A stretch of DNA of 64,000 bases. Origin: Candidatus Moraniibacteriota bacterium (lineage in GTDB: Bacteria; Patescibacteriota; Minisyncoccia; Moranbacterales; GCA-2747515). The stretch covers positions 12,838 to 76,837 of the forward strand of contig CP065011.1 of NCBI GenBank assembly GCA_016699795.1, in the 5' to 3' direction. Each line of letters begins with the position of its first letter. Within the stretch, counting starts at the first letter, position 1. The position numbers were made by a program, and so were the translations under genes. The notes under the pieces are model-generated. The model saw nothing but the letters and a program-made list of their open reading frames with translations. It had not been told where the DNA came from and ran no database searches. Shown one piece after another: positions 1,176 to 52,666 of this stretch.

Positions 1176-3035
1176 TTATTCGTGAGAAGAAAAATACCAT
1201 TCGTAAACTTTCTTTGCTATTGGAACAGCATGATACCCATCTTTTTCTTGCTCTTCCAAGAGAACAATTAAAACAATTTCAGGATTTTCATAAGGAGCAA
1301 AAGAAGCAAACCATCCATGTGTTTTTTCTTTATTACCATATTCTGCTGTTCCCGTTTTCCCTGCTACAGTGAAAGGAAGATCCTTTAAAGACATCGCTGT
1401 ACCCTCTGTGACAGTCATACGCATACCCTCGCGAACAATCCGTAGTATTTTGTCATCAATGCCCACAGAAGTTCCTTCTTTAGAAATTCGTTTAATAATA
1501 TCTCCTTCAGGAGATCTCATATAGGAAGCCACCGTCGGAATAAATTTAGTTCCTCCATTAGCGATGGCTGAAATGGAAATAGCTACTTGAAGCGGTGTCG
1601 CTCGAAGATATCCCTGTCCAATTGATGAATGATACGTATTTCCGATATACCATTTTTCATGTATATTTTCTTCTTTCCATTGAGCGTCCGGTATCAATCC
1701 CCCACTCTCACTCGGAAGATCAATTTGAGTTACTTCCCCATAACCGAAACGTTTCTCATACTCTTTCATTTTTTCCATACCAAGCCCTTTAACATTTCCA
1801 TAGCCCCCTCCAACACTATAAAAAAATACATCCCCAGAAACAGCTATCGCTTGACGAACATCAGTAAATCCATGAGCTTTCCAATCACCAAAGAAAGAAC
1901 CTCCAACAGAAATACCACCCGTACTTTCCACACGAGTACTCTCATTAATAGTCCCCTCATTGAGAGCTGCAGCCGCTAGAACGGGTTTTATCGTAGAAGC
2001 TGGTGGGTATTCCCCTGAGACAACTCTATTAAATAAAGGCTTATCTTTATTTTGAAATATCTCTTGATAAAGTTCTTTATTTCTATTTTGAGAAAAAATA
2101 TTATTATCATACGAAGGAAAACTTACCAAGGCTAAAATTTCTCCATTTCTCGGATCCATAGCCACAGCAGATCCGCGAGAAAGTTTATTTTTCTCCATTT
2201 CTTCACGCATAGTATCAAAAAGTATCTTTTGCAAGCCTCCGTCAAGAGAAAGGATAACATCATTTCCTGACTTTGGATCTTGCGTAGAAATCTCTTTTCG
2301 TACACGCCCGAAAGCATCAACTTCAACTTTATAAGCACCGTGAGTTCCTCGCAATAAAGATTCGTATTCTTTCTCAATTCCACTTCGCCCCACTGAATCA
2401 GTAAGGAGATAATTCGGATACGTCTGAATATCTTTTGTAGTCAAAGCACTTTCGTAACCAAGAATATGAGAGAAAATAACACTATCTTCATATTGACGAG
2501 AAACTGATTTTTTCAAAACCACACCAGGAAACTCATTTTCCCTTTCAGAAAATCGAAGTATTTCATCTCTCGTGAGATCTTTTTTAAGAAGAACTTCCGA
2601 AAAAACCATTTTTCCTCCATATTCAAAAGCTTTTTCAATATCTTCACGAGAAATATTAAATATTTCTTTAAGTTTAAAATATCCTTCAATATCACGAGAA
2701 ATAACATCTTCAGTAAATCTCAAAACAAGACTTACTGAAGGAATATTATATACCAATTGTTGACCCTTTCGATCAAATATTTTTCCCCTCGGCGCTTCAA
2801 TAGGAATAATTCTCAGTGCATTTTCTCGAGAGATCTCTGTATAATATTCTCCTTTTACAATTCCCAAATGAACAATTCGAAAAAAGAATACCATAAAAAG
2901 AAAAAAGGTTATTCCCAAAAGTATGCGCAAATTTTTCATTCGAAAAGGAATGTCCATCCAAGCACGTTCTTCTTCCGAAGCGCTTAAAATAGAATCGTCA
3001 ATTTCATATCTACTGCCCAAAGAAACCTTAATCAT
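1176..3035 (-). CDS. mrdA: Penicillin-binding protein 2 (peptidoglycan D,D-transpeptidase)
   Basis: N-terminal TM anchor; transpeptidase motifs STIKP (SxxK), SGD-like (AVSGDVFFY) and KTGTAE (KTG); start placed at internal ATG (3035-3033, MIKVSLGSRYEIDD...) rather than the ORF-track start at 3137, which would overlap mreD by 85 nt. Confidence 0.8.
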   Translation of the reverse strand: MIKVSLGSRYEIDDSILSASEEERAWMDIPFRMKNLRILLGITFFLFMVFFFRIVHLGIVKGEYYTEISRENALRIIPIEAPRGKIFDRKGQQLVYNIPSVSLVLRFTEDVISRDIEGYFKLKEIFNISREDIEKAFEYGGKMVFSEVLLKKDLTRDEILRFSERENEFPGVVLKKSVSRQYEDSVIFSHILGYESALTTKDIQTYPNYLLTDSVGRSGIEKEYESLLRGTHGAYKVEVDAFGRVRKEISTQDPKSGNDVILSLDGGLQKILFDTMREEMEKNKLSRGSAVAMDPRNGEILALVSFPSYDNNIFSQNRNKELYQEIFQNKDKPLFNRVVSGEYPPASTIKPVLAAAALNEGTINESTRVESTGGISVGGSFFGDWKAHGFTDVRQAIAVSGDVFFYSVGGGYGNVKGLGMEKMKEYEKRFGYGEVTQIDLPSESGGLIPDAQWKEENIHEKWYIGNTYHSSIGQGYLRATPLQVAISISAIANGGTKFIPTVASYMRSPEGDIIKRISKEGTSVGIDDKILRIVREGMRMTVTEGTAMSLKDLPFTVAGKTGTAEYGNKEKTHGWFASFAPYENPEIVLIVLLEEQEKDGYHAVPIAKKVYEWYFSSHE

Positions 3036-3052
3036 ATTCTCTTCCAAAAAAA

Positions 3053-3571
3053 TTACTTTAAATATCTTTTTGTATAAAAATATTTTACTATTCCATACAC
3101 TATCCAGAAAAAAATCAAAGAAATAATTCCATACCAAAAAGAAAAATTCATTTCGTCCCTTAGTATAACAAAAAAAGAATCAGGATTAAATCCTAAATAC
3201 TTTCGACCAAAAAAAGTCATCATTTGAAAAAAACTAAGAGAAATTAAAACGAAAAGGGAGATAATTCCAATGCCTAAAATTTTTCTCCCCGAAACAATAC
3301 GACGAGAAAGAAGGGAAATTCCATAAGAAGAAAGAAGAAGAGGAATAATGCCAAAACCAAATGACTCAAAAAAAAGACTATCATACAAAAATCCTAATAT
3401 AAGAACTCCAATAATTTTATCATCGAATCCATAAAGGAGTATCCATGCAAGAGCAATGAATACAATTACATTGGGAGCAAAAAACTCATAAGGAAATAGT
3501 ACATTTACAAAGACTATCTGAAAGGTAATAATACTTAAATAAAAAAATATTTTCAAAAAAATATTTATCAT
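3053..3571 (-). CDS. mreD: Rod shape-determining protein MreD-like polytopic membrane protein
   Basis: 172 aa, ~5 hydrophobic helices, sits between mreC and PBP2 with 4-nt overlap to mreC (ATGA-type coupling). Confidence 0.6.
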   Translation of the reverse strand: MINIFLKIFFYLSIITFQIVFVNVLFPYEFFAPNVIVFIALAWILLYGFDDKIIGVLILGFLYDSLFFESFGFGIIPLLLSSYGISLLSRRIVSGRKILGIGIISLFVLISLSFFQMMTFFGRKYLGFNPDSFFVILRDEMNFSFWYGIISLIFFWIVYGIVKYFYTKRYLK

Positions 3572-4377
3572 ATCCCCGTATTCACGGAAATAAATTCCAG
3601 ATCTGAAAAAGAAAATCCTTGGTCAATGGTTGCTTGTTGAGCTAATCCATCATCACTCATTCGAATATCTCGGACTTTTCCCACAAAGAGATCTGGTGGG
3701 TAAAGAACTCCGATATCAGAAGTGATTATACGATCTCCTTCAGAAAGAGCTTCTGTAGAAAGAACCATATCAAGAAGAAGTCCGAGACCGTATCGGCCTC
3801 GAACAATGCCTTTTGTTCGTGAATCCGAAACTCGAACATTTACAACACTCTCTTGACTTGTAAGTAATTTTATTCGAGAAGCATTTGAATACACTTCCTC
3901 GATACGACCAATGAGAATTGAAGAATAAGCAAAAACAGGCATTCCTATTTTAAAATTCTTGTTATTTCCTTTATCAATAACGATCCATTCACCTTCTTTT
4001 TCATCTCCATATCCAATAATTCTCGCCATTTCCATCTTCTTTTCTAATTTCAAAGAAAGGTTTAATTGCTCCCGAAGTAATTCATTTTCAGAAGAAGCTG
4101 ATTCTAATTCAGCTATTCGAGATTCTAAACGTTTATTCTCATAAAAAAGTTGTTCATTCGTAGAACGAATATTTGAAAAACCTGAAAACAAAGCAAATCT
4201 TTTTCGTATTTCAAAAGAGAAAGATGATAAGGGGGAAGCAACGGGAGAAATAACTGTCCAGAAAAAAGATCGAATAGGATAGAGTGTTTTCCCTATAAAA
4301 AGAAAAGATATTCCCAAAAAAAGAATAACTACAATACCTATTTGAACTTTTTTCTGCCCAAAAATAGATTGTCGCAT
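3568..4377 (-). CDS. mreC: Rod shape-determining protein MreC
   Basis: N-terminal TM helix, coiled-coil segment (ENKRLESRIAELESASSENELLREQLNL) then beta-rich periplasmic domain; position between mreB and mreD. Confidence 0.75.
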   Translation of the reverse strand: MRQSIFGQKKVQIGIVVILFLGISFLFIGKTLYPIRSFFWTVISPVASPLSSFSFEIRKRFALFSGFSNIRSTNEQLFYENKRLESRIAELESASSENELLREQLNLSLKLEKKMEMARIIGYGDEKEGEWIVIDKGNNKNFKIGMPVFAYSSILIGRIEEVYSNASRIKLLTSQESVVNVRVSDSRTKGIVRGRYGLGLLLDMVLSTEALSEGDRIITSDIGVLYPPDLFVGKVRDIRMSDDGLAQQATIDQGFSFSDLEFISVNTGI

Positions 4378-4620
4378 AAATAACTCTTTGTTATACTCTT
4401 TCCCAAACCGGATTACCTATAATGAAAGCTTGAGATTCTAAACAAGAACTGTAAAAATCGAGGAGTGCTATCAAGATAACATGATGAAATTTTTATCAAT
4501 TCACAGTTAGAATATAAAGATTTCACGCGTACTATAGTTTGGAAAAGAGTATGTATATACAAAAACTTCAGAGAATTTCTTACCATTCAAAAATTTTTAA
4601 ACATTCCTTTGGAAATCTCC

Positions 4621-5706
4621 CTAAAGAAGTGGTCTATCATCCCCCGTTTCCACCAAAACTTCTCGAAGTTCCTCCAAATTTTCCAAAACAATTCCCGTTC
4701 CTCGAGCAACGGCCGTTAATGGATCATCCATAATACGAACTGGAATTTCTGTTTCATTGGCAATAAATACATCAAGATTTCTAATTAAACTACCTCCCCC
4801 TGCAAGAATAATACCTCGTTGCATAATGTCAGACAATAATTCTGGCGGTGTTTCTTCTACAATCGTTTTAATCGTATTGACAATAACCCGAAGCGAACGA
4901 GAAATTGCCTCTCGAATATGCGAATCATTTATAATCAATTCTTTGGGGATTCCTGTAACTAAATCTCGTCCACGAACAGCAACTTCGATAGGCTCTGCTA
5001 AAAGAGTTGCACTTCCTGCGGTAATTTTCACATTTTCAGCAGTACGTTCTCCAATAAGCATATTGTATTCGTCACGCATATACCGAATAATATCCTCATT
5101 CATCTCATCACCCGCGATACGAAGTGATCGAGCAGCCACAACACCACCCAGAGAAATAACTGCGATTTCCGAAGTTCCTCCCCCTATATCCACTATCATA
5201 TTTCCGGATGCTTGAATAACGGGTATTCTTGCACCAATCGCTGCGGCCATTGGCTCATCGATAAGATAGGCTTCGCGCGCACCCGCCATAAGAGTGGCAT
5301 CAATAACTGCCCGACGTTCTACCTCGGTAACTCCACAAGGAATCCCCACTAATACTCGTGGTCGAGGAACAAGTGAAAAAGACTCTTTATGAACTTTTTC
5401 TATAAAATACCGAAGCATTTGATGCGTTATTTCAAAGTCACTTATAACACCATCTACTAATGGACGAGAGGCCACGATATGACTCGGCGTCCTCCCTACC
5501 ATCTTCTTCGCTTCAGTTCCTATAGCCAAAACCTGTCCTGTTCTTTTGTTAATAGCCACAACAGAAGGCTCATTGATAACTATTCCTTTTCCACGAACAT
5601 ATACCAACGTATTTGCAGTGCCAAGATCAATTCCAATATCTTTGGAAATACTACCAAAAAGAAACCCCGTTGTTTTTCTTGATATCTTTTTTATCGATTC
5701 TAACAT
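4621..5706 (-). CDS. mreB: Rod shape-determining actin homologue MreB
   Basis: IGIDLGTANTLVYVRGKGIVINEPSVVA..., DIGGGTSEIAVISLGGVV and ILAGGGSLIRNLD actin-fold motifs; start taken at internal ATG (MLESIKKISRK...) 5706; ORF-track start 5766 adds 20 non-conserved residues. Confidence 0.9.
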   Translation of the reverse strand: MLESIKKISRKTTGFLFGSISKDIGIDLGTANTLVYVRGKGIVINEPSVVAINKRTGQVLAIGTEAKKMVGRTPSHIVASRPLVDGVISDFEITHQMLRYFIEKVHKESFSLVPRPRVLVGIPCGVTEVERRAVIDATLMAGAREAYLIDEPMAAAIGARIPVIQASGNMIVDIGGGTSEIAVISLGGVVAARSLRIAGDEMNEDIIRYMRDEYNMLIGERTAENVKITAGSATLLAEPIEVAVRGRDLVTGIPKELIINDSHIREAISRSLRVIVNTIKTIVEETPPELLSDIMQRGIILAGGGSLIRNLDVFIANETEIPVRIMDDPLTAVARGTGIVLENLEELREVLVETGDDRPLL

Positions 5707-44451: not shown

Positions 44452-46834
44452 TTAACGACGAACTCTTATTTGGCAACTATCAAATTCATTTTTACAATAG
44501 TATGTAATAGTTCCTGAAACATCTGTGCGCACTATTCGGACATCTCGTTCTTCCAATCGTTTTAGTATATCACTATCAGGATGACCATATTTATTATCAT
44601 TCCCAACAGAAATTATAGCGTCTATTGGATGAATTTTTTCCAAAAAATTTTCTGTTGTAGAAGATTTTGATCCATGGTGCGCTACCTTCAGAACGTCCAC
44701 ATTTGAGACATCAAGGAAAGACTCTTGCTCTCCTGGAAGATCCCCCGTAAAAAGAAATGATTGTGCCCCATATTCCAAAAAAAGAACAAGACTGGCTTTA
44801 TTAATATCCTTTTCGGCTTCTTTAATTTTTCCAGAAGGATGTAAAATATTCACAACAGCCCCATTAGGAAAGACAAAACGATCTCCCCAAGAAAAAACTT
44901 TTCTTGGGGTAGTATATGTTTCGAGATTCGTTCTCCATGCCCTATAGACAGCAGTATCTTTCTCTGTGTTCGTCTCTCCCACAAGACCTATCTCATACAC
45001 AGGCATAAGTTCAGAAAAACCTCCTATGTGATCCGCATCCGGATGAGTCGCTATCACCATCTCAATATGTCTGTCATTGTATGGCATTTCTTGACGCAAT
45101 CGATCAAGAAGAATTTTTGGATTCGGTCCTCCATCAATAAGTACTTGTATATTTCCTGAAGAAAGTAAAATAGCGTCTCCCTGACCAACATCTAAAAAAG
45201 AAACTTTTATACCAGAAGAGTCTTTCCAAGTGCTCTGAAAAATATGCCAGCCAAAAACAAACGTCATTCCTCCCAAAATAAATAGAATCCAAAAAAGGAT
45301 CGTGCTATTTTTCACCAGCCTCATAAAGCTCACATTGTAAATATTTTTTCCTTCGATTTTTCACATAATACCAAAAAAGTACAAAAAGGATAGCCCCATA
45401 ATACATATATGAAAAATCCATCGAGAAAGATGAGATAGAAAAAAACGAAAAAGAAGAGATACTATCTATAACAAAAAGATTATAAGAAAGAATCAAAGAA
45501 GCCCCCAAACCAAAAAGTTTCGCAAGAAAAAAAGAAAAAGAACTTACTACAAGAGCAAAAAAGAGAAAAAACATAACCAATGGTATATTCCAAAGAATAA
45601 GAATATTAGCAAACAAAGAAAGAAAAGAGAAAGAGCCAAATGTTCCTAGTATAAGTGGGAGAACAAATAATTGTGCGGCCAACGTAGTCAAAAAAATTTC
45701 AATGAAAATTTCCACTATCCAGGGAAATTTTTGCTTGTTCCATTTAGTTACTATTATAGGAACGCCCAAAAGAATTCCTGCCGTTGCTAATACGGACAAT
45801 TGAAAACCAACATCGTATCGAAGAATAAACGGATTATCAAAAACCATCATCGCACTTGCCAAGAGAAGAGCTCTCGTACCAGAACCTATTACACCACCTC
45901 GCACAGCAAAGAGAACGAGAATACCCATAATGCCGGCACGAACTCCAGAAGCTGGAAATCCTATAAGAGCAAGAAAGAAAAAAATACCAAGGACGCCAAT
46001 CCACCAAGAATGTTGTCGACGAATACCTATGGCAATAGCAATAAGAGAAAAATATTGAACCAAAAGGGTAACATTATACCCCGAAACCGCTACGATATGA
46101 GTCATAGAAGTATTATTAAATTTTTCCTCCCATTCTTTGCTAAATCGAGAGGTCCCTCCAAAAAGTAATCCCGAGCCAAGAGCGCTTTCTGGGAAAGGAA
46201 GGATTTTTTCTAATCGACTTTCCCAATCAGATCGCATATCCGCTAATCGCGATTGCCAAGTAATCGTTCTTTCTCCAGTTTTTCGAGGATTATAATCATA
46301 GCAAAAAAGAACTGGCCCACGAGAAGCAAATATTCTTTTCCAATCCATTTGAGTTTCCTTGTCATATTCAGGAATTTCCCAATTGCATGAAACATAAACA
46401 TGTTCTCCCTGCTGATAATTTTCCCATAATTGAGTACGTAAGAAGGCCTCCTCTTAAAAACAATCTCCCCTATCACAATACTGAAAAACAAAAGGAACTC
46501 TTTGCGTTGAATTTTCTTTCACAGATGATCCAGAAATGACAACTTCTTGAGAAAAAGCTGTTCCAGAAATACCTTCAATGAAAGAAAAATCTGTCTTTTT
46601 TGAAAAGATTAATAAGAAAAAAGGAAGAGAAAGAAAAAAAATAACATAAGGGTATATATGCCTATTTTCATAGAATCCTCCAAGAAGAGCCATTCCTAAT
46701 CCGAAACTCAAAAAAAAGATAATCCAAGAAAATTTAAAAAAAAGAATACTTATTGCACCAACAAGAAGGGCTATCGAAAAAGAAACCAAACCGTCAGATA
46801 CAAAAAGAATCTTCTTTTGTTCAAAAGAGAGCAT
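44452..46834 (-). pseudogene. comEC: ComEC/Rec2 DNA-uptake channel gene broken into three pieces (in-frame TAA at 46454-46456; frameshift in 45305-45333 overlap)
   Basis: Piece 1 (46834..46454): N-terminal TM/OB region, continues in same frame after TAA (...CDRGDCF*EEAFLRTQLWENYQQGEHVYVSC...). Piece 2 (46348..45305): competence domain (TSMTHIVAVSGYNVTLL). Piece 3 (45333..44452): metallo-beta-lactamase domain (VSFLDVGQGDAILL...ATHPDADHIGG) in a different frame. Confidence 0.65.
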
Positions 46835-47039
46835 GTGCTAAATAGATAAAAAATTTTCCTTCCCCTATGAAAGAAAAGTAGTTTCTTTTATAAAAAAATG
46901 CAAAAAATAGCCACATCGATATAAACAACAATGACCATCTCCCTCACTATTTTTTCGAAAAAAAGAAAGTCTTATAAAAAATTATCTTTTTATAGAACCT
47001 TGCTTATGAAAATATCCAAATAAAAAAATCCTAAAAATT

Positions 47040-47744
47040 TCAACGTCGAATCTCAATCAAACCGAAATGATCTTGTATGTTTTTTTGGATACGATCAAGA
47101 TTTACAAATGTATCAGCTGCAATTTGTAAGTCTTTACATAAAATCTTTCCTTGTCGAAACTCTTGCAAATAATAAGCACTCGCGCCATCTATCCATTCTG
47201 CAATACGAAAAAAATCTTCTTCTTCGTGAATCCCAGGAACAACCGTAGTTCGAAATTCATATTCTTTCGCTCGTTTCATAAGAAGAGAAACGCTTCTTTT
47301 TATATCATCAAGAGGAACACTTACACCAGTTGCGAGTGAATATTTTTCTGGCATATGTTTAATATCCATAGCCCAATAATCAACAACATTCTCATTGAGA
47401 ATTTTCTCCACAATATCTGGAAAAAAGCCATTCGTATCGAGTTTAATCAAAAATCCCAAAGATCGTATACGAGAAATTGTTTCCAAAAGATCTTTCTGAA
47501 GTGTGGGCTCTCCTCCTGTAATACAAACAGCATCAAGTTTTCCTTTTCGTTTTTCAAGGAAATCAAAGAATTCTTCTTCACGATTTTTTTTGAATAATTC
47601 CAGAGAAATACTATCTGTCACCTCAACTAATTCAGGATTATGACAAAAAGGACATCGAAAAACGCATCCAGGAGTAAAAACAACTGTGGCCATTTTTCCA
47701 GGATAATCAAGAAGGGTAAATTTTTCAAAGCCTGCTATATGCAT
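47040..47744 (-). CDS. nrdG: Anaerobic ribonucleotide reductase activating protein (radical SAM)
   Basis: N-terminal CVFRCPFC (Cx3Cx2C) radical-SAM cluster motif, 234 aa, near nrdD. Confidence 0.75.
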   Translation of the reverse strand: MHIAGFEKFTLLDYPGKMATVVFTPGCVFRCPFCHNPELVEVTDSISLELFKKNREEEFFDFLEKRKGKLDAVCITGGEPTLQKDLLETISRIRSLGFLIKLDTNGFFPDIVEKILNENVVDYWAMDIKHMPEKYSLATGVSVPLDDIKRSVSLLMKRAKEYEFRTTVVPGIHEEEDFFRIAEWIDGASAYYLQEFRQGKILCKDLQIAADTFVNLDRIQKNIQDHFGLIEIRR

Positions 47745-47848
47745 ATATCTCTTTTTCTAAAATTGACAAATTTAGTTTTTTGTGTTATATATAATCCGCT
47801 CTTATGCCCTTTAACATCTGCTCCCTATCCCCTAGAGGAATTACTTCC

Positions 47849-48352
47849 ATGACCACTAATCACGAAGATTTTTCTGACTCCGGCGAAGATGAGATGAAAA
47901 TTAAACCCCGCAGATCTTTAGTTGGTTATATGGCCAAATTGATCTCCTTCTTCTTAGGTTTTTTTCTGGTAGGTTTTTTGGTTTATAATCTCCTTCAAGG
48001 AGGAAATAACCCCCTCACATTACTTCAAGAAAAATTCTCGCGAAAAGAGTTCTCCTGTTCTTTCTTTCTCAGCACATGGGATACGATCAATTTTAAGGAT
48101 GATTCTCTCGGGATTGTAAAGTATCGAAGGCATGCAGCCTTTCCTTTTAGTCTTTTCGAGGGTCAGAAGCTCGAAGTAATCTTCATAGACACTTCAGGAA
48201 AAGTATCTGAAAAAACCTTTGATACAAAATCAAGTAGTTTTTGCACTTCCATAAGAGAAGTCCAATCCTTCGGGGAAAAAGAAACGCTGTCTAAATGGAC
48301 AAAAAATATGGAAAGGTCAAGGAAACTTATTGATAAACAAGGAGCGTTGTAA
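47849..48352 (+). CDS. Hypothetical bitopic membrane protein (167 aa)
   Basis: SD agagga 9 nt upstream of ATG 47849; acidic N-term, one TM, extracytoplasmic domain; strong terminator after stop. Confidence 0.55.
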   Translation: MTTNHEDFSDSGEDEMKIKPRRSLVGYMAKLISFFLGFFLVGFLVYNLLQGGNNPLTLLQEKFSRKEFSCSFFLSTWDTINFKDDSLGIVKYRRHAAFPFSLFEGQKLEVIFIDTSGKVSEKTFDTKSSSFCTSIREVQSFGEKETLSKWTKNMERSRKLIDKQGAL

Positions 48353-48366
48353 TAGGTTTCGTATCA

Positions 48367-48400
48367 AAAGGGGAAAAACATTTCCCCTTTTTTTCTTTTT
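48367..48400 (+). terminator. Intrinsic terminator
   Basis: aaaggggaaa-aaca-tttccccttt followed by ttttttcttttt. Confidence 0.7.
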
Positions 48401-48418
48401 AAAGAATTCGGAGCTAAA

Positions 48419-48667
48419 CTAACAAGAACAAGCGTATTCTTTCCTATCATTATATTCAGCTTGCTTTCCTTTATTCCATTGAGAAACAGGGCGGATATAT
48501 CCCACAACACGAGAATATACTTCTGTTGTGCGATAATTACGAAGCATTGAATCTTTTTTAAAACATTGTACGCATTTATAATATGAGCATTTTTGAGCTT
48601 CATATTCCATGTATTTCTCTCCCTCAGAAATTATCTCCTCGCAGTCATGACATGTTATTTTTTCCAT
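48419..48667 (-). CDS. Stand-alone glycyl-radical domain protein with Cys-rich zinc-ribbon (NrdD C-terminal-like)
   Basis: 82 aa: CHDC...C-x4-C-x2-C then TTEVYSRVVGYIRPVSQWNKGKQAEYNDRKEY, matching the conserved NrdD glycyl-radical C-terminus (RVxGY); ~60 nt downstream of nrdD. Confidence 0.7.
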   Translation of the reverse strand: MEKITCHDCEEIISEGEKYMEYEAQKCSYYKCVQCFKKDSMLRNYRTTEVYSRVVGYIRPVSQWNKGKQAEYNDRKEYACSC

Positions 48668-48730
48668 ATTCGCTTTTTTTTGAATATTGATAATCTTTTT
48701 TTAAATCATCAATACTCTTATTTTATTATT

Positions 48731-50857
48731 TTATGTATTATTTTCCTTTTTCTTCACTTGTAACTTTTCACTTACTCCAGAAACGACACAAAACGGACAA
48801 ATAGGAACTTCTCCTGACAAATATCCATGTTCGGGACAAATACTAAACGTCGGTGTGATAGAGAAATAAGGAAGATGATAATGATGGGAAATTTTCTTTA
48901 CAAGATCTCGTACCTGAGTTCCTTTAGAAAGTCGTTCTCCAAGAAATCCATGAAGGACAGTTCCTCCTGTGTATTTTGTTTGCAAATTATCCTGAAGATC
49001 CAATGCCTCAAAGATATCTTGTGTGTGTCCAACGGGAAGTTGAGATGAATTTGTATAGTATGGTTCTGCCTTATGTTTTCGAACATCCTCATCATTAGCA
49101 AAAATAATAGTATCAAATTTTGCCTTATCCTTGAGGGCTAATCTGTACGACGTTCCTTCTGCAGGAGTTGCCTCAAGATTATACATATTTCCCGTTTCTT
49201 TTTGATAGTTTATTATGCGATCTCTCATATGTTCAAGAACTTCCTGAGCAAGAAAATTTCCTTTTTCTGTTGTAATAGGTTCCCCCACAAGATTAAGAAG
49301 TGCTTCATTCATTCCCACAATTCCTATAGTAGAAAAGTGATTACTCCAATAAAGAGAAAATCGCTTATAAATATTTCTCAAATAAAACTTTGTGTAAGGA
49401 TAAAGACCTTTTTTCGTAAGATGCTCAACAGCATTTCTTTTAATCTCCAAACTTTCTTTAGCAAGGTCCATAAGATGATCTAATTTCTCATAAAAATCGC
49501 TCATATCTTGAGAAATATAACCCAAACGAGGAAGATTTATCGTTACAACACCAATAGATCCTGTAAGAGGATTCGCTCCAAAAAGACCACCTCCACGCTT
49601 TCTTAACTCCTTGTTATTCAACCGCAATCTACAACACATACTTCGTGCATCATCCGGACTCATATCAGAGTTTACAAAGTTTGCAAAATAAGGAATGCCA
49701 TATTTTGCTGTCATTTCCCAAATAGGATCAAATCGTTTATCCTCCCAAGGAAAATTCTTCGTTATATTATATGTCGGGATAGGAAAGGTAAATATTCTTC
49801 CAGAAGAATCTCCCTCACACATAACCTCGGCGAAAGCTCTGTTTATCATATCCATTTCTTTCTGAAACTCACCATACTTTTCTTTTTGAGGAACACCCCC
49901 TATAACCACAGATTCGTCGCGGAGAGTGCTTGGAGGAGTCATATCAAGAGTGATGTTCGAAAACGGAGTCTGGAAACCTACACGAGTAGAAACGTTCATG
50001 TTAAAAACGAATGACTGCATTTCCTGTTTCACTTGTTTATAAGAAAGGTTATCATATCGAACAAACGGAGCTAAAAGAGTATCGAAATTTGAAAAAGCTT
50101 CTGCCCCAGCTGCTTCACCTTGTAATGTGTAAATGAAATTAACTATTTGTCCAAGAGCAACGCTAAAATGTTTTGCTGGAGAACATGAAACTTTCCCATC
50201 AACACCAGTAAATCCTTCATGTAAGAGATCTTGTAAATCCCAACCACAACAATATGCTGATATTGCCTGAAGATCATGAATATGAAAATCACCTTCTTCA
50301 TGTGCATTACGAATTTCTTCTGGATAAATTCTACTCATCCAATACTTTGCACTTACAGCACTAGAAATATAATTATTAAGACCCTGCAATGAATACGCCA
50401 TATTGGCATTTTCTTTCGTTTTCCAATCTAATTCACCCAAATAATCATCCACAAGGCGAATAGCGTCCTGCAAAGAGTTTCTCGCTTCCCGTGCTTGTCG
50501 TCTTTTTTCTCGATAGAGAATATAAGCCTTGGCCGTTTCTTCAAAATCCAAAACCATCAATACCTTTTCTACAGTATCTTGAACACTTTCAATATTTGGA
50601 ATATATTCCTTATCTGAATTTTTTTTAAATTTTAAAGCCTCTTTTTCCAAAAGCGCAACTACCTTTTTGGCAACCTTCTTTGCTTCTTTTGTTGTTCCCT
50701 CTCCTGTAACGAGAAGAGCTTTTTCCACAGCGATCACAATTTTTTTAGGTTGAAAAGCTGCTTTTCTCCCACTCCTCTTTATAATACGAAGTAAAGTAGA
50801 ACTTTCTAGAGAGCTATTTTTTTCCTCTTCTTTTTTTGGGATGGCTATTGTATTCAT
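48731..50857 (-). CDS. nrdD: Anaerobic ribonucleoside-triphosphate reductase (class III) body, ends after its zinc site without glycyl-radical motif
   Basis: N-terminal ATP-cone (LRIIKRSGRKAAFQPKKI), large catalytic barrel, C-terminal FSITPTFSICPEHGYLSGEVPICPFC then stop TAA; 4-nt overlap with nrdR. Confidence 0.9.
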   Translation of the reverse strand: MNTIAIPKKEEEKNSSLESSTLLRIIKRSGRKAAFQPKKIVIAVEKALLVTGEGTTKEAKKVAKKVVALLEKEALKFKKNSDKEYIPNIESVQDTVEKVLMVLDFEETAKAYILYREKRRQAREARNSLQDAIRLVDDYLGELDWKTKENANMAYSLQGLNNYISSAVSAKYWMSRIYPEEIRNAHEEGDFHIHDLQAISAYCCGWDLQDLLHEGFTGVDGKVSCSPAKHFSVALGQIVNFIYTLQGEAAGAEAFSNFDTLLAPFVRYDNLSYKQVKQEMQSFVFNMNVSTRVGFQTPFSNITLDMTPPSTLRDESVVIGGVPQKEKYGEFQKEMDMINRAFAEVMCEGDSSGRIFTFPIPTYNITKNFPWEDKRFDPIWEMTAKYGIPYFANFVNSDMSPDDARSMCCRLRLNNKELRKRGGGLFGANPLTGSIGVVTINLPRLGYISQDMSDFYEKLDHLMDLAKESLEIKRNAVEHLTKKGLYPYTKFYLRNIYKRFSLYWSNHFSTIGIVGMNEALLNLVGEPITTEKGNFLAQEVLEHMRDRIINYQKETGNMYNLEATPAEGTSYRLALKDKAKFDTIIFANDEDVRKHKAEPYYTNSSQLPVGHTQDIFEALDLQDNLQTKYTGGTVLHGFLGERLSKGTQVRDLVKKISHHYHLPYFSITPTFSICPEHGYLSGEVPICPFCVVSGVSEKLQVKKKENNT

Positions 50858-51339
50858 ACAGTCTTTTCTTTTCTTAATCCTATCTTTTTTTCTTCTTCAA
50901 GTTTATCCAGCTCTTTACGAAAATTTCCTACACTTTTGAACGATTTATATACACTTGCAAACCTCATATACGCAACATCATCAATATCCCGAAGCTTTTT
51001 TAAAATAAGCTTTCCAATGTCTCTACTTTTTATTATTTCATTATGTCTCGAATGAATACCGTATTCTATATCTCCAAGAAATTTTTCTATCTGCTCAAGT
51101 GTTACGGGCCTCTTTTCAAAGGCTTTTTCTAATCCTTTCCGAATTTTTTCTCGATCATATTCCTGCTCTTCCCCCGATCGCTTTACTACAGTAATTTTTA
51201 GCACTTCAACTTCTTCATATGTGGTAAAACGTCGTCCGCATTTTTCACATTCCCTTCTTCTTCGAATAGCACGCCCCTCATGCACATCGCGGGAATCAAT
51301 AACTTTAACGCTTGTATTCTGACAAAAAGGACATATCAT
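50854..51339 (-). CDS. nrdR: Transcriptional repressor NrdR
   Basis: MICPFCQNTSVKVIDSRDVHEGRAIRRRRECEKCGRRFTTYE zinc ribbon + ATP-cone. Confidence 0.95.
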   Translation of the reverse strand: MICPFCQNTSVKVIDSRDVHEGRAIRRRRECEKCGRRFTTYEEVEVLKITVVKRSGEEQEYDREKIRKGLEKAFEKRPVTLEQIEKFLGDIEYGIHSRHNEIIKSRDIGKLILKKLRDIDDVAYMRFASVYKSFKSVGNFRKELDKLEEEKKIGLRKEKTV

Positions 51340-51354
51340 AAAAAGTCTTTACAT

Positions 51355-51403
51355 TTTCTAGATATTGTGTAGCTATCTTTACTTTCTACACAATATATTG
51401 TGG
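51355..51403. promoter_or_regulatory. Two NrdR boxes upstream of nrdR-nrdD
   Basis: Box B acacaatatattgtgg (51388-51403) matches acaCwAtATaTwGtgt; box A tctagatattgtgtag (51355-51370) is a weaker copy; centre spacing ~33 bp; candidate minus-strand promoter ttgctt-17-tatact at 51421-51449. Confidence 0.6.
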
Positions 51404-51545
51404 TTTTTTACATAATAATGAGTATACTCGAAATTATTTGCTTAAGCAAATTCGCGAGTATGAAAGAAAAAAAATGATTTATCCACCGAAAAGGAAGAGG
51501 TGCCTATTTCAATAATTCACTTAAAAAAATAATTCCATACAAAAA

Positions 51546-51578
51546 CCCCTTTACATATATTTATCTAAAGGGGTTTTT
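51546..51578. terminator. Hairpin with A-run/T-run flanks (bidirectional terminator)
   Basis: aaaaa-ccccttta-(12-nt loop)-taaagggg-ttttt. Confidence 0.55.
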
Positions 51579-51609
51579 CTTGATGAGAGAAATAACGTTC
51601 CTGAAAAAG

Positions 51610-52032
51610 TTATCTTTGAGGGAGTATTTCTACTGTTATTTGATCTCCCAATCTACAAGCATTCATGAGGAGTCGTATTGAGGAATGTGTTTTTGGCTTT
51701 CTCAATTCCTCTTCATATTGCTCTGCAAATCTCAAGAAAACGCACTCCCAATCCAAATCACGAAGACATCGAGCGACAATTCTCCGCATTCCATCTTTAT
51801 TGGGCAAGGGTTCTCCCGAGAGATAAAGCTCTGAAGGACTTCTCAACAAGCCCATGAGCTCGGCGATAATAAGAATTGATCCTGATTGATTTTCAGGATC
51901 TAGACGATAGGGCCCAACCTTTACAATAAGTCTATCAAGATAATCCTCTCCGATTATTTGTTTGGCTTCACGCATCCGTCTAAGATTTCCCCTATCAAAT
52001 ACTGGGGTTTGAGAGAGATTTTTTTGTATCAT
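51610..52032 (-). CDS. Hypothetical protein (140 aa), GC-richer
   Basis: ORF followed by terminator; no motif assigned. Confidence 0.45.
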   Translation of the reverse strand: MIQKNLSQTPVFDRGNLRRMREAKQIIGEDYLDRLIVKVGPYRLDPENQSGSILIIAELMGLLRSPSELYLSGEPLPNKDGMRRIVARCLRDLDWECVFLRFAEQYEEELRKPKTHSSIRLLMNACRLGDQITVEILPQR

Positions 52033-52162
52033 TTTTCACCTCAAAGAACTAAAAAAATCGGATACTTTCCGACACAAAAACCCTATCATATCCCCAGAAA
52101 AAATCAAGGGGTACGTATATATTAATTTCGCCTATTGCTTTATTTTTTCAAAAATTTTTTCT

Positions 52163-52666
52163 TTATTCAAGCGAGGGAAGATCAGAAACTTCTTTTAGTT
52201 CCTGTGAAAGAATTTTATCCCCTTTTCCAAAATAAAATTTTCCTTGAAATTTTTTGTTTTCGAGAAATAATGGAAACCAATATTCATCATCTGCCCACAT
52301 ATCTTTATAAGGTATATTTTCAAAATTAAACCATTTTGGTTTCATCTCATCCGTTTCCTCAGGAAATCCCACAAAACTATCCACACAAAATATATGCACT
52401 ACCATAATTTCATCAGGACGAGATTCAAAAATGAATTCATGCACGCCTCTGTATTCCATATTTTCAACACCTACGCCACATTCTTCAAACATTTCACGAC
52501 GAGCCGCCTCAGGAATTGTTTCTCCCGCCTCAACTTTTCCACCAAATCCATTCCACCGTCCCATACCAAAACCCCTCTTTTTCATACCAAGAAGAATTTT
52601 TCCTTCTTTAGTAGCAAGACAAAGAGTAAAAAGTCTTTTCTTCATAGATTCTGCGATTATTTCCAA
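52163..52666 (-). CDS. Nudix hydrolase (MutT-like)
   Basis: Canonical Nudix box GGKVEAGETIPEAARREMFEECGV (GX5EX7REUXEEXGU). Confidence 0.85.
   Translation of the reverse strand: MEIIAESMKKRLFTLCLATKEGKILLGMKKRGFGMGRWNGFGGKVEAGETIPEAARREMFEECGVGVENMEYRGVHEFIFESRPDEIMVVHIFCVDSFVGFPEETDEMKPKWFNFENIPYKDMWADDEYWFPLFLENKKFQGKFYFGKGDKILSQELKEVSDLPSLE

Follow-up and report, generated by a model that had tools for sequence, protein, structure and literature searches.

The window, the 64-kb stretch of DNA analysed here, probably encodes a class III ribonucleotide reductase (RNR) made of two polypeptides, in which an autonomous NrdD-type protein of 82 aa would be the only radical-bearing subunit. Its partner is a 708-aa NrdD without a glycyl-radical domain (GRD). 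The gene architecture, its conservation, the selection acting on both genes and their genomic contexts were observed directly.

All genes of this system lie on the minus strand. The first gene of the operon is nrdR (50854..51339), intact as the sequence-only reading had stated, whose product matches Pfam Zn_ribbon_NrdR (E 1.4e-20) and ATP-cone (E 6.6e-20) and whose TGA stop overlaps the nrdD ATG (ATGA). Two palindromic sites 5' of nrdR (51355..51403, minus strand), CCACAATATATTGTGT and ACACAATATCTAG, lie about 32 bp apart, centre to centre. Spotted by eye, they are candidate NrdR boxes that resemble the consensus acaCwAtATaTwGtgt. The GRD-less nrdD follows (48731..50857), then an A-rich spacer of 63 nt (48668..48730) and the free-standing gene for the zinc-ribbon and GRD protein (48419..48667), with the codon for Gly56, the predicted radical site, at 48500..48502. 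A bidirectional intrinsic terminator (48366..48391; an 11-bp stem, AAAAGGGGAAA/TTTCCCCTTTT, with T runs on either strand) is predicted to close the nrdR-nrdD-small ORF transcription unit. The gene for the radical-SAM activase, nrdG (47040..47744), is recognized by TIGR02495 NrdG2 (198.7 bits; cut-off 131) and by Pfam Radical_SAM and Fer4_12. It is nearby, as first noted, though a plus-strand ORF and the terminator stand between it and the small ORF; in relatives nrdG lies directly 3' of the small ORF, and the gene order nrdR-nrdD-small-nrdG recurs. A promoter scan gave 19 promoter-like sites against 15.9 expected, which is chance level, and no internal promoter is claimed. The small ORF start has no Shine-Dalgarno sequence upstream; the other genes in the window likewise lack one.

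The large ORF is an NrdD minus its GRD. The Pfam ATP-cone occupies residues 24-120, and the ORF matches Pfam NRDD (PF13597) over model positions 1-528 of 562 (E 4e-183; 610.5 bits, cut-off 26.2), NCBIfam NF006126 over positions 4-649 of 684 (1019.6 bits; cut-off 548) and TIGR02487 (523.4 bits; cut-off 326). The finger loop bears a double Cys (ARSMCCRLRL). A C/H/C/C site, CPEH..CPFC, is a predicted zinc site, and a site of this CPxH..CPxC type is kept in all truncated homologues. The ORF ends in TPTFSICPEHGYLSGEVPICPFCVVSGVSEKLQVKKKENNT and a stop, where canonical relatives run on with CPKCVVEQKTEVYSRVVGYIRPV; a Lys-rich tail stands where the GRD would be. The radical motif RVxG[FY] is absent from this barrel polypeptide, and RVVGY is found on the 82-aa ORF. 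The content and coordinates that the sequence-only reading gave for this gene (708 aa; ATP-cone, catalytic body and zinc site, but no radical segment) are borne out by Pfam and NCBIfam, as well as by the tails of homologues. Since the large subunit retains a zinc ribbon of its own, a complex of the two proteins must fit two ribbons.

The small ORF matches only the C-terminal positions, 510-562 of 562, of Pfam NRDD (E 1.9e-11; 43.8 bits, cut-off 26.2). A search for membership of the pyruvate formate-lyase (PFL)-type GRD family returned only PF13597 NRDD in hmmscan (E<=0.01) and only NrdD models in NCBIfam. The ribbon was first read as CHDC...C-x4-C-x2-C; its conserved predicted ligands are C6, C9, C32 and C35, and C27 is not conserved. 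Downstream of it lies a perfect NrdD GRD, TEVYSRVVG56YIRPVSQWNKGKQAEY, and a C-terminal Cys pair (CSC), so the earlier description of a separate ORF with a Cys-rich ribbon and an NrdD radical tail holds. An alignment of 38 homologues contains 27 invariant columns. Gly56 is among them, and aligns with YMRIVGY of Thermotoga maritima NrdD. (The small ORF and its profile found only marginal matches in the PDB, to the T. maritima NrdD C-terminus at E 0.1-0.8, which served solely to map the radical Gly.) The AF2 model of the protein (pLDDT 70.8) shows a ribbon and a helix, as well as a hairpin that has G56 at the tip; Foldseek of this model against the PDB retrieved nothing but ribosomal proteins with zinc ribbons (E>0.07), which says no more than "ribbon-like". 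A PHROGs search yielded no dedicated family; its only matches were weak and fell in the final ~50 positions of the full-length NrdD family.

Purifying selection acts on both genes, in keeping with the earlier remark that the system looks functional. For the small ORF, pN is 0.25 and pS 0.89, giving a pN/pS of 0.29 overall, 0.37 for the ribbon and 0.16 for the GRD half, its most constrained part. For the barrel of the large subunit, pN/pS is 0.17 among truncated NrdDs versus 0.13 among complete ones.

Free-standing homologues of the small ORF number in the hundreds (546 matches at E<=1e-10), and every one of the best 150 cluster representatives is 42-159 aa long; judged from sequence, the feature is far beyond chance. 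The GRD is missing from NrdD in all of the 26 closest clusters (70-100% identity, P0269-P0294), which have in common a ..CPxCV....KLKVKK tail, and from about 45 of the 120 nearest NrdDs. Six other truncated NrdDs, taken from the large-protein search, were tested, and in 6/6 the small gene is directly 3', followed by nrdG. Further pairs of a truncated NrdD and a small gene can be matched through the length of their contigs. The small gene is present also at all 13 truncated-NrdD genome loci, which were themselves found via the small gene. Related genomes, which the sequence-only reading had named as the place to look, have the same two-gene layout and no continuous nrdD, with the small ORF strongly conserved. 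Two further arrangements occur. In 14 related genomes the small gene lies 3' of a complete, GRD-bearing NrdD. Another 15 have it at a site unlinked to nrdD; an unlinked small gene (L036) and a complete NrdD (L049) occur together in one MAG, RA.bin113. Free-standing NrdD-type GRD mini-genes are found on viral contigs as well.

These data leave hardly any room for an assembly or sequencing error that interrupts a really continuous gene, or for a recent pseudogene at a decaying locus. MAG assemblies do hold frameshifts: the nrdD of L025, a complete long-read genome, has one, and P0350 and P0378 are apparently frameshifted within the GRD. However, dozens of assemblies and sample sets that are independent of one another show the identical architecture, at 70-85% protein identity; the window locus has two in-frame stops plus ~45 ribbon residues foreign to canonical NrdD; and strong purifying selection acts on both ORFs. 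An artefactual or decaying locus is effectively refuted.

The stops in the spacer, correctly counted in the sequence-only reading, are nrdD's own TAA and a second TAA nine codons on. A terminator scan of the spacer (48668..48730) detected none, and an Rfam search of 46500-52500 gave no match, and no intron or riboswitch in the spacer. The two ORFs are in frame in the window, and inteins occur in the NrdD family (P0285 and P0288 have a LAGLIDADG intein in the finger loop), so the ORFs might be imagined to be joined at the RNA or protein level. Readthrough, recoding, split-intein trans-splicing and an intron were each considered and rejected on the stops, the frame, the spacer length and the short ends: two TAA codons intervene; spacers in relatives measure 8-159 nt, and the two ORFs share a frame at just 12 loci out of 28, where chance would give 9.3; the 63-nt spacer is too short for an intron and has no Rfam match; and the large-ORF tail and small-ORF N-terminus are far too short for split-intein halves. 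Moreover, no joining is needed where the small gene accompanies a complete NrdD. We give joining practically no credence.

Simple fission, in which stops or a small insertion cut one ancestral nrdD and left its original C-terminus as the small ORF, has more to recommend it, but is also unlikely. In the window the two ORFs are same-strand neighbours that share a frame, and genuine fissions exist. At the loci that we call type D (L056, L057, L060, L068, L069, L074, L076 and L080), NrdD ends ..CPKCDEEIGY.. and is followed by a GRD-only ORF of 46-66 aa without a ribbon; these gene pairs tile a full-length NrdD without overlap. The window pair is different. The ribbon is duplicated, both ORFs matching Pfam NRDD positions 510-528, and the ribbon of the small ORF is a complete second one with its own signature (CHDC...KCxxC[FHY]xKD..LRNF, versus CPxHGY..CPxC in the large ORF). 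In addition, the frame between nrdD and the small gene is not conserved among relatives, and the same small gene stands after complete NrdDs or unlinked to nrdD. The sequence-only reading had offered a split gene as one of two options. This is correct insofar as the cis GRD was lost from nrdD; however, the small ORF, with its duplicated ribbon, is not the severed tail. The other option, a radical domain supplied in trans in the manner of GrcA/YfiD, is supported by the small genes found beside complete NrdDs or on their own.

The NrdD tree bears on how the two-gene arrangement arose. Complete NrdDs with the small gene (state A), truncated NrdDs with the small gene (state B) and solely fused forms (state F) are interspersed in it, and truncated NrdDs have at least six different kinds of tail. 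Some keep vestiges (EQKTEVFLKV.., or TETYSKAI and two stops) that end just before the radical Gly. These ends resemble the fragment of an oxygen-cleaved NrdD. From the varied tails and the interspersed states, the cis GRD seems to have been lost several times, with the small gene present. Most likely, the autonomous GRD paralogue came first and loss of the cis GRD from nrdD afterwards. The small protein would then be a member of a family of autonomous NrdD-type GRD proteins that is both old and widespread, and whose ancestral setting was alongside a complete NrdD as a GrcA/YfiD-like spare part; the Moranbacteria clade of the window and, independently, others may have dropped the redundant cis GRD, making the spare part obligatory. 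Within one genome, GRD copies are closer to one another than orthologues are (nucleotide identity 0.82 vs 0.71; third-position identity 0.65 vs 0.44, reaching 0.90 in some genomes), and lineage-specific GRD residues (QQWH) of the unlinked small genes recur in the NrdD of the same lineage. This likeness suggests that the GRD copies of one genome are interchangeable or co-evolving, as they appear to be.

Unlinked small genes occur in a distinctive neighbourhood. Oxidative-stress genes, counted when they code for a PerR-like Fur regulator, Fe/Mn SOD, rubrerythrin, desulfoferrodoxin or hemerythrin and lie on the same strand no more than 2.5 kb away, are found near 13 of the 15, versus 0 of 65 other loci. 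The idea of oxygen repair draws on this neighbourhood, which is that of other lineages and not of the window's own.

Oxygen destroys glycyl-radical enzymes through chain cleavage at the radical glycine. We know of no remedy other than GrcA/YfiD, for pyruvate formate-lyase. For the two-polypeptide RNR of the window, we infer activation by NrdG, docking in trans and, possibly, a role in oxygen repair. The 708-aa NrdD would supply allosteric regulation (through the ATP-cone), the catalytic barrel and the finger loop that carries the thiyl radical. NrdG would recognize the zinc ribbon and GRD of the small protein and abstract hydrogen from Gly56. The GRD hairpin would then dock non-covalently in the NrdD barrel, at the site taken by the covalent GRD of ordinary NrdDs, and generate the cysteine thiyl radical for nucleotide reduction. 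Should oxygen cut the chain at this glycine, replacing the 82-residue protein alone would suffice, sparing the 708-residue enzyme. To our knowledge, there is no demonstrated case of an NrdD GRD that functions non-covalently. An AF2 model of the large and small proteins in concatenation did not place the GRD, with pLDDT <50 at residues 691-767 and at the finger loop, and so lends the complex no structural support.

A different role for the small protein, as a regulator or decoy (competitor for NrdG, zinc-delivery protein or activation chaperone) beside an inactive or repurposed truncated NrdD, with dNTPs coming from another RNR, is a minor contender. Genomes with a complete NrdD do not strictly need the small protein for catalysis; one unlinked copy (L031) adjoins a class I/II-type RNR gene; and viral copies could equally inhibit the NrdD-NrdG pair of the host. 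On the other hand, a regulator or decoy fits poorly with an invariant radical motif, including its Gly, in the most constrained half of the protein; with a truncated barrel as constrained as complete ones; with the retention of truncated nrdD in the nrdR-nrdD-small-nrdG operon; and with repeated loss of the cis GRD where the small gene is found at every truncated case checked (6/6 directly, plus the 13 loci). The 64-kb window was searched for another RNR, Fur, SOD, rubrerythrin and a second GRD, and held none; the 120 best NrdD matches include no second NrdD from the 1.19-Mb contig. The RNR search covered the 64-kb window, and a complete nrdD or an RNR of another class may lie elsewhere in the genome.

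Beyond the two-polypeptide RNR of the window, we lean slightly towards a broader proposal: that autonomous NrdD-type GRD mini-proteins, with a zinc ribbon or GRD-only, form a large unrecognized family of exchangeable radical cofactor subunits for class III RNRs. Their settings would be PerR-linked repair parts in some Parcubacteria, sole radical subunits where nrdD has shed its GRD, and phage or viral auxiliary genes that keep up or hijack the anaerobic dNTP supply of the host. Open-access papers and bioRxiv yielded no report of a split NrdD or of an NrdD spare part, an absence that is not proof. If the proposal is true, spare parts would for the first time be known for a glycyl-radical enzyme outside the formate lyases, and this would be the first RNR with its radical site on a separate, disposable polypeptide. 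The locus and its relatives make the spare-part question testable for an essential anaerobic RNR. Among these loci are an obligate two-piece enzyme that occurs naturally, natural pairs of complete enzyme and extra copy, copies in oxidative-stress clusters, and viral copies. The system also bears on how CPR bacteria with tiny genomes cope with oxygen. The 82-aa protein is also a minimal substrate for studies of NrdG recognition. Annotation is affected too: these mini-proteins are now named "anaerobic ribonucleoside-triphosphate reductase" or "hypothetical protein", and in at least one case, ANMV-1, a viral genome has been credited with an RNR on the basis of such a mini-protein (PMC4372165).

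The window enzyme shares with canonical NrdD (phage T4, 1H79; T. maritima, 4COI/4U3E; P. copri, 8P23) and NrdG the ATP-cone, barrel, finger loop, Cys/His zinc site, RVVGY motif and NrdG2-type activase. Unlike the canonical single chain, it has its zinc site and radical motif on separate polypeptides, along with a second ribbon. Reportedly, the NrdA of Aeromonas phage Aeh1 is split by the homing-endonuclease gene mobE, an instance of genes-in-pieces, and its two parts, each translated on its own, assemble into a functional RNR large subunit. That enzyme differs in being class I, in its mobile endonuclease insertion, in a split inside the catalytic body and in having no duplicated module.

Another parallel in layout is the split class II RNR NrdJa/NrdJb of Pseudomonas aeruginosa (Crona et al. 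2015), as described in PMC9669993. There too the catalytic chain is spread over two consecutive genes; the upstream product is a barrel with an extra tail, and the downstream product a C-terminal module that contains a zinc finger. NrdJ differs in its class (adenosylcobalamin-dependent) and in a detached module without a radical; it represents plain fission, no module being duplicated, and is not known in a version where an extra copy accompanies the complete enzyme. The window pair departs from such tiling without overlap in having ribbon positions 510-528 in both products.

The nearest counterparts are Escherichia coli GrcA/YfiD and the phage T4 protein Y06I, which are autonomous glycyl-radical cofactors that act as spare parts for pyruvate formate-lyase (PMC13450708 section 5.3; PMC8683613). 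Whether other glycyl-radical enzymes have such parts is a question explicitly raised by the field (PMC8683613; PMC13450708); according to a June 2026 review, formate lyases alone are known to have them and those for other enzymes are "yet to be determined" (PMC13450708). Like GrcA/YfiD and Y06I, the 82-aa protein is small, free-standing and essentially a GRD, and its family combines a link to oxygen stress with phage-borne versions. An arrangement like that of GrcA/YfiD, with the small gene alongside a full-length enzyme, occurs in the 14 related genomes and probably in the unlinked cases, among which RA.bin113 has a complete NrdD. The radical-SAM activase that serves the enzyme would presumably activate the small protein as well, which would then take the place of an oxygen-cleaved GRD. 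There is no family-level homology, however: the small ORF matches Pfam NRDD and not the PFL-type Gly_radical family (PF01228 / IPR011140), and its N-terminal half is a conserved four-Cys predicted zinc ribbon, whereas YfiD has a disordered N-terminal region. The target differs as well, being a class III RNR, for which the 2026 review lists no known spare part (PMC13450708). Finally, the window NrdD lacks a GRD of its own, so no GRD-bearing full-length NrdD stands beside the small ORF there; in contrast to GrcA/YfiD, the part would be obligatory rather than spare.

The nrd locus of the window lies on the minus strand and comprises nrdR (50854–51339), nrdD (48731–50857; start codon ATG overlapping the stop of nrdR), a 63-nt spacer, and an 82-residue ORF (48419–48667) followed by a bidirectional terminator (48366–48391). 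The sequence-only reading held that this class III ribonucleotide reductase (RNR), 708 residues long, lacks its glycyl-radical domain (GRD), which a separate ORF encodes beyond two stops. This description stands, with small corrections to details. The large ORF carries the ATP-cone (Pfam) and scores 1019.6 bits against NCBIfam model NF006126 (cut-off 548), over positions 4–649 of 684; its Pfam NRDD match likewise covers only positions 1–528 of 562. It ends in ...TPTFSICPEHGYLSGEVPICPFCVVSGVSEKLQVKKKENNT and a stop, where canonical relatives run on as ...CPKCVVEQKTEVYSRVVGYIRPV.... The small ORF matches the end of NRDD alone (positions 510–562; E 1.9e-11, above the gathering score) and bears RVVG56Y, the radical motif. 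The spacer keeps the reading frame and includes one more TAA; a terminator scan detected no terminator-like site between the two ORFs.

Two NrdR-box-like palindromes, CCACAATATATTGTGT and ACACAATATCTAG, lie about 32 bp apart upstream of nrdR (51355–51403, minus strand), with a terminator-like stem-loop farther upstream (~51540–51575). Through these putative boxes, NrdR probably controls its own operon (nrdR-nrdD-small ORF). The nearby nrdG was correctly recognized (47040–47744; TIGR02495 above cut-off). It lies past an unrelated plus-strand ORF of 182 residues (47804–48352) that has a single predicted membrane helix and matches nothing in Pfam. Since nrdG directly follows the small gene in six relatives (L081–L083 and L085–L087), this ORF represents a local insertion or rearrangement.

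Conservation of the small ORF elsewhere, on which the original claim hinged, is extensive. A word-indexed protein search returned more than 300 homologues; the best 120 are all 63–115 residues long, with 51–73% identity, and most belong to Moranbacteria or Parcubacteria MAGs. With an exhaustive profile search the matches numbered 3977 (546 at E<=1e-10), and its 150 best cluster representatives all measure 42–159 residues. An alignment of 38 homologues has 27 invariant columns, among them C6, D8, C9, C32, C35, and the entire EVYSRVVGYIRP..QWN.GK..E block. Synonymous changes have reached saturation (pS 0.89), whereas pN is 0.25; pN/pS is 0.16 in the GRD half and 0.37 in the ribbon half. The large ORF has its own relatives: none of the 26 closest NrdD clusters (70–100% identity) has the GRD, and a Lys-rich tail is common to them all; of the 120 nearest NrdDs, about 45 are GRD-less. 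Truncated NrdD barrels are constrained as strongly as complete ones (pN/pS 0.17 versus 0.13). Purifying selection on both genes is thus consistent with the earlier impression of a functional system. An assembly or sequencing artefact is ruled out by homologue numbers, invariant columns, selection, and the same truncation in relatives.

To survey architectures, one genome per species was scanned and 80 loci were sorted by script. Fourteen (type A) encode a complete, GRD-bearing NrdD followed by the small ribbon-plus-GRD gene; independent gene calls for one, L087, give nrdR, nrdD (729 aa), the small gene (86 aa), and nrdG. The window layout, in which the small gene comes after a truncated NrdD (type B), recurs at 13 loci, as the sequence-only reading had proposed to look for. 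At 15 CPR loci and L052 (type C, unlinked), the small gene has no NrdD within 5 kb on either strand. Ordinary fused NrdDs (type F) account for 24 loci. The remaining five are GRD-only orphans (L051 and L067, both in spirochaete genomes, and L079), the ambiguous L046, and L025, a complete Moraniibacteriota genome (CP064994.1) in which the nrdD preceding the small gene lies in three frames (~2503–4992; first piece 449 aa, gap 1139 nt), through either long-read frameshift errors or real decay.

Eight further loci (type D: L056, L057, L060, L068, L069, L074, L076, L080) differ in kind. Here NrdD keeps its ribbon, ending ..CPKCDEEIGY.., and is followed by a GRD-only ORF of 46–66 residues without one. 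The hosts are several other CPR groups, one Leptospiraceae genome, and one Thermoplasmatota genome. This is genuine simple fission, a second independent kind of split NrdD.

In the reverse direction, six of six truncated NrdDs from a large-protein search have the small gene immediately downstream, then nrdG; at one of the six the gene caller had overlooked it. The intervening spacer measures 8–159 nt and the frame is shared at only 12 of 28 loci, so nrdD and the small gene are separate genes, and a recoded single gene is ruled out. (Two truncated NrdDs of 1027–1031 aa, P0285 and P0288, partners of small ORFs P0002 and P0007, contain a ~329-aa LAGLIDADG-type intein at the finger-loop double-Cys, ..ARSMC/CRLRL..; the longer NrdDs of L064 and L074, 1257–1350 aa, probably carry inteins too.)

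The unlinked genes suggest a tie to oxygen. Of 15 unlinked ribbon-type genes, 13 have at least one of the following on their own strand no more than 2.5 kb away, often at 0–250 nt: a Fur-family regulator, Fe/Mn superoxide dismutase (SOD), rubrerythrin, desulfoferrodoxin, or hemerythrin-domain protein. No such gene occurs at any of the other 65 loci. The regulators best match NCBIfam PerR models at 90–97 bits, under the curated cut-offs, and so are labelled only PerR-like. In the window, a NUDIX hydrolase (MKKRGFG.GRWNG.GGK.. type) is encoded two genes away from nrdR (52163–52666, minus strand), and the same type occurs beside SOD near unlinked small genes in Staskawiczbacteria-like loci (L031, 6886–7347; L037; L040); a shared link to nucleotide-pool sanitation is possible. 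Together, types A and C, the oxidative-stress context, and the reverse search support the sequence-only reading's idea of a radical domain acting in trans.

How did the arrangement arise? The small-protein ribbon, CHDC...[FY]xKCxxC[FHY]xKD..L[RK]N[FY], aligns to the same Pfam positions as the NrdD ribbon, CPxHGY...CPxC, and by sequence is a distinct conserved paralogue of it. Types A, B, and F are interspersed on a neighbour-joining barrel tree, and truncated tails are of at least six unrelated kinds. Some retain remnants of the GRD's first strand (EQKTEVFLKVG.., EQKTAVYLKV..), and two clusters end at ..EQKTETYSK[VA]I, where the radical glycine would be the next residue: the genetic counterpart of the oxygen-cleaved fragment. 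We infer repeated loss of the cis GRD from genomes already possessing the small gene; the number of losses is approximate because the tree lacks support values.

In type A, GRD copies within a genome are more alike than orthologous copies (nucleotide identity 0.82 versus 0.71; third positions 0.65 versus 0.44), implying gene conversion or very tight co-evolution. In L010, L018, and L023 the two segments share 90–96% DNA identity (third positions 0.84–0.90; orthologues ~71%), which indicates apparent gene conversion between direct repeats. Recombination there would also restore a fused gene or remove one of the copies. Lineage-specific GRD residues (QQWH) are also common to unlinked small genes and same-lineage fused NrdDs. 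At least two Cys occur in the last 10 residues of 78 of 119 small proteins (P0001–P0120; CSC, ACC, CASC, CGC; ..ACSC in the window, 48419–48430), versus 1 of 72 GRD-bearing nearest NrdDs. They may supply two additional metal ligands, or form a redox-active tail comparable to the class I/II RNR C-terminal dithiol.

Viruses carry similar genes. Among 80 IMG/VR viral-contig loci (L088–L167), 66 have free-standing NrdD-type GRD ORFs (43–206 aa stop to stop; for example L114, ~4001–4102; L105, ~4001–4105; L123, 3887–4111; L094, 3926–4288), with no NrdD catalytic region within 4 kb on either strand. Their neighbours are phage genes (amidase, tail, HNH); about 11 have the CHDC..KCxxC ribbon, and the majority are GRD-only. 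The 144-aa ribbon-plus-GRD product of ANMV-1 (KP703175.1, AJP62049.1; L168, 3857–4291), deposited as 'anaerobic ribonucleoside triphosphate reductase', was taken by Paul et al. (2015; PMC4372165) as evidence of a virus-encoded oxygen-sensitive RNR. Judged by its sequence, it is a radical mini-protein only, not nrdD.

Architecture, conservation, selection on both genes, and gene contexts are the basis of our proposal. The small protein probably supplies the radical in trans; we lean slightly toward the family having originated as, and also acting as, an oxygen-damage spare part. NrdG would radicalize G56, the GRD would dock non-covalently in the NrdD barrel, and cleavage by oxygen would require replacement of the 82-residue protein alone. 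The ribbon may be needed for the NrdG step, as the NrdD zinc site was reportedly found by Logan et al. in 2003 to be required for radical generation. In the window's clade, the spare part would now be the sole radical subunit. Modelled on its own by AF2 (pLDDT 70.8), the small protein has a predicted ribbon, a β-hairpin whose tip carries G56, and a helix, the fold expected for a GRD; AF2 on the large and small pair gave no usable model of the complex.

Database entries name the small proteins 'anaerobic ribonucleoside-triphosphate reductase' or 'hypothetical protein', and neither PHROGs nor NCBIfam has a dedicated model. The open-access papers and bioRxiv preprints searched describe no split NrdD or NrdD spare part. 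A June 2026 review (PMC13450708) and Andorfer et al. (2021) both state that spare parts are known for formate lyases only. Split class II NrdJa/NrdJb offers a precedent for a two-gene RNR (Crona et al. 2015, as discussed in PMC9669993). Functionally nearest is GrcA/YfiD (with T4 Y06I), which serves pyruvate formate-lyase. The two are not one family by sequence, however; the small protein matches Pfam NRDD alone. MAG RA.bin113, where a complete NrdD (L049) coexists with an unlinked small gene (L036), repeats the grcA/pflB layout, here amid oxidative-stress genes. The viral ORFs parallel Y06I, with NrdD as the putative target instead, and could rescue or hijack host NrdD. We infer that the small protein is an autonomous glycyl-radical cofactor like GrcA/YfiD, new in serving a class III RNR, in having a zinc ribbon, and in being obligatory in this genome.
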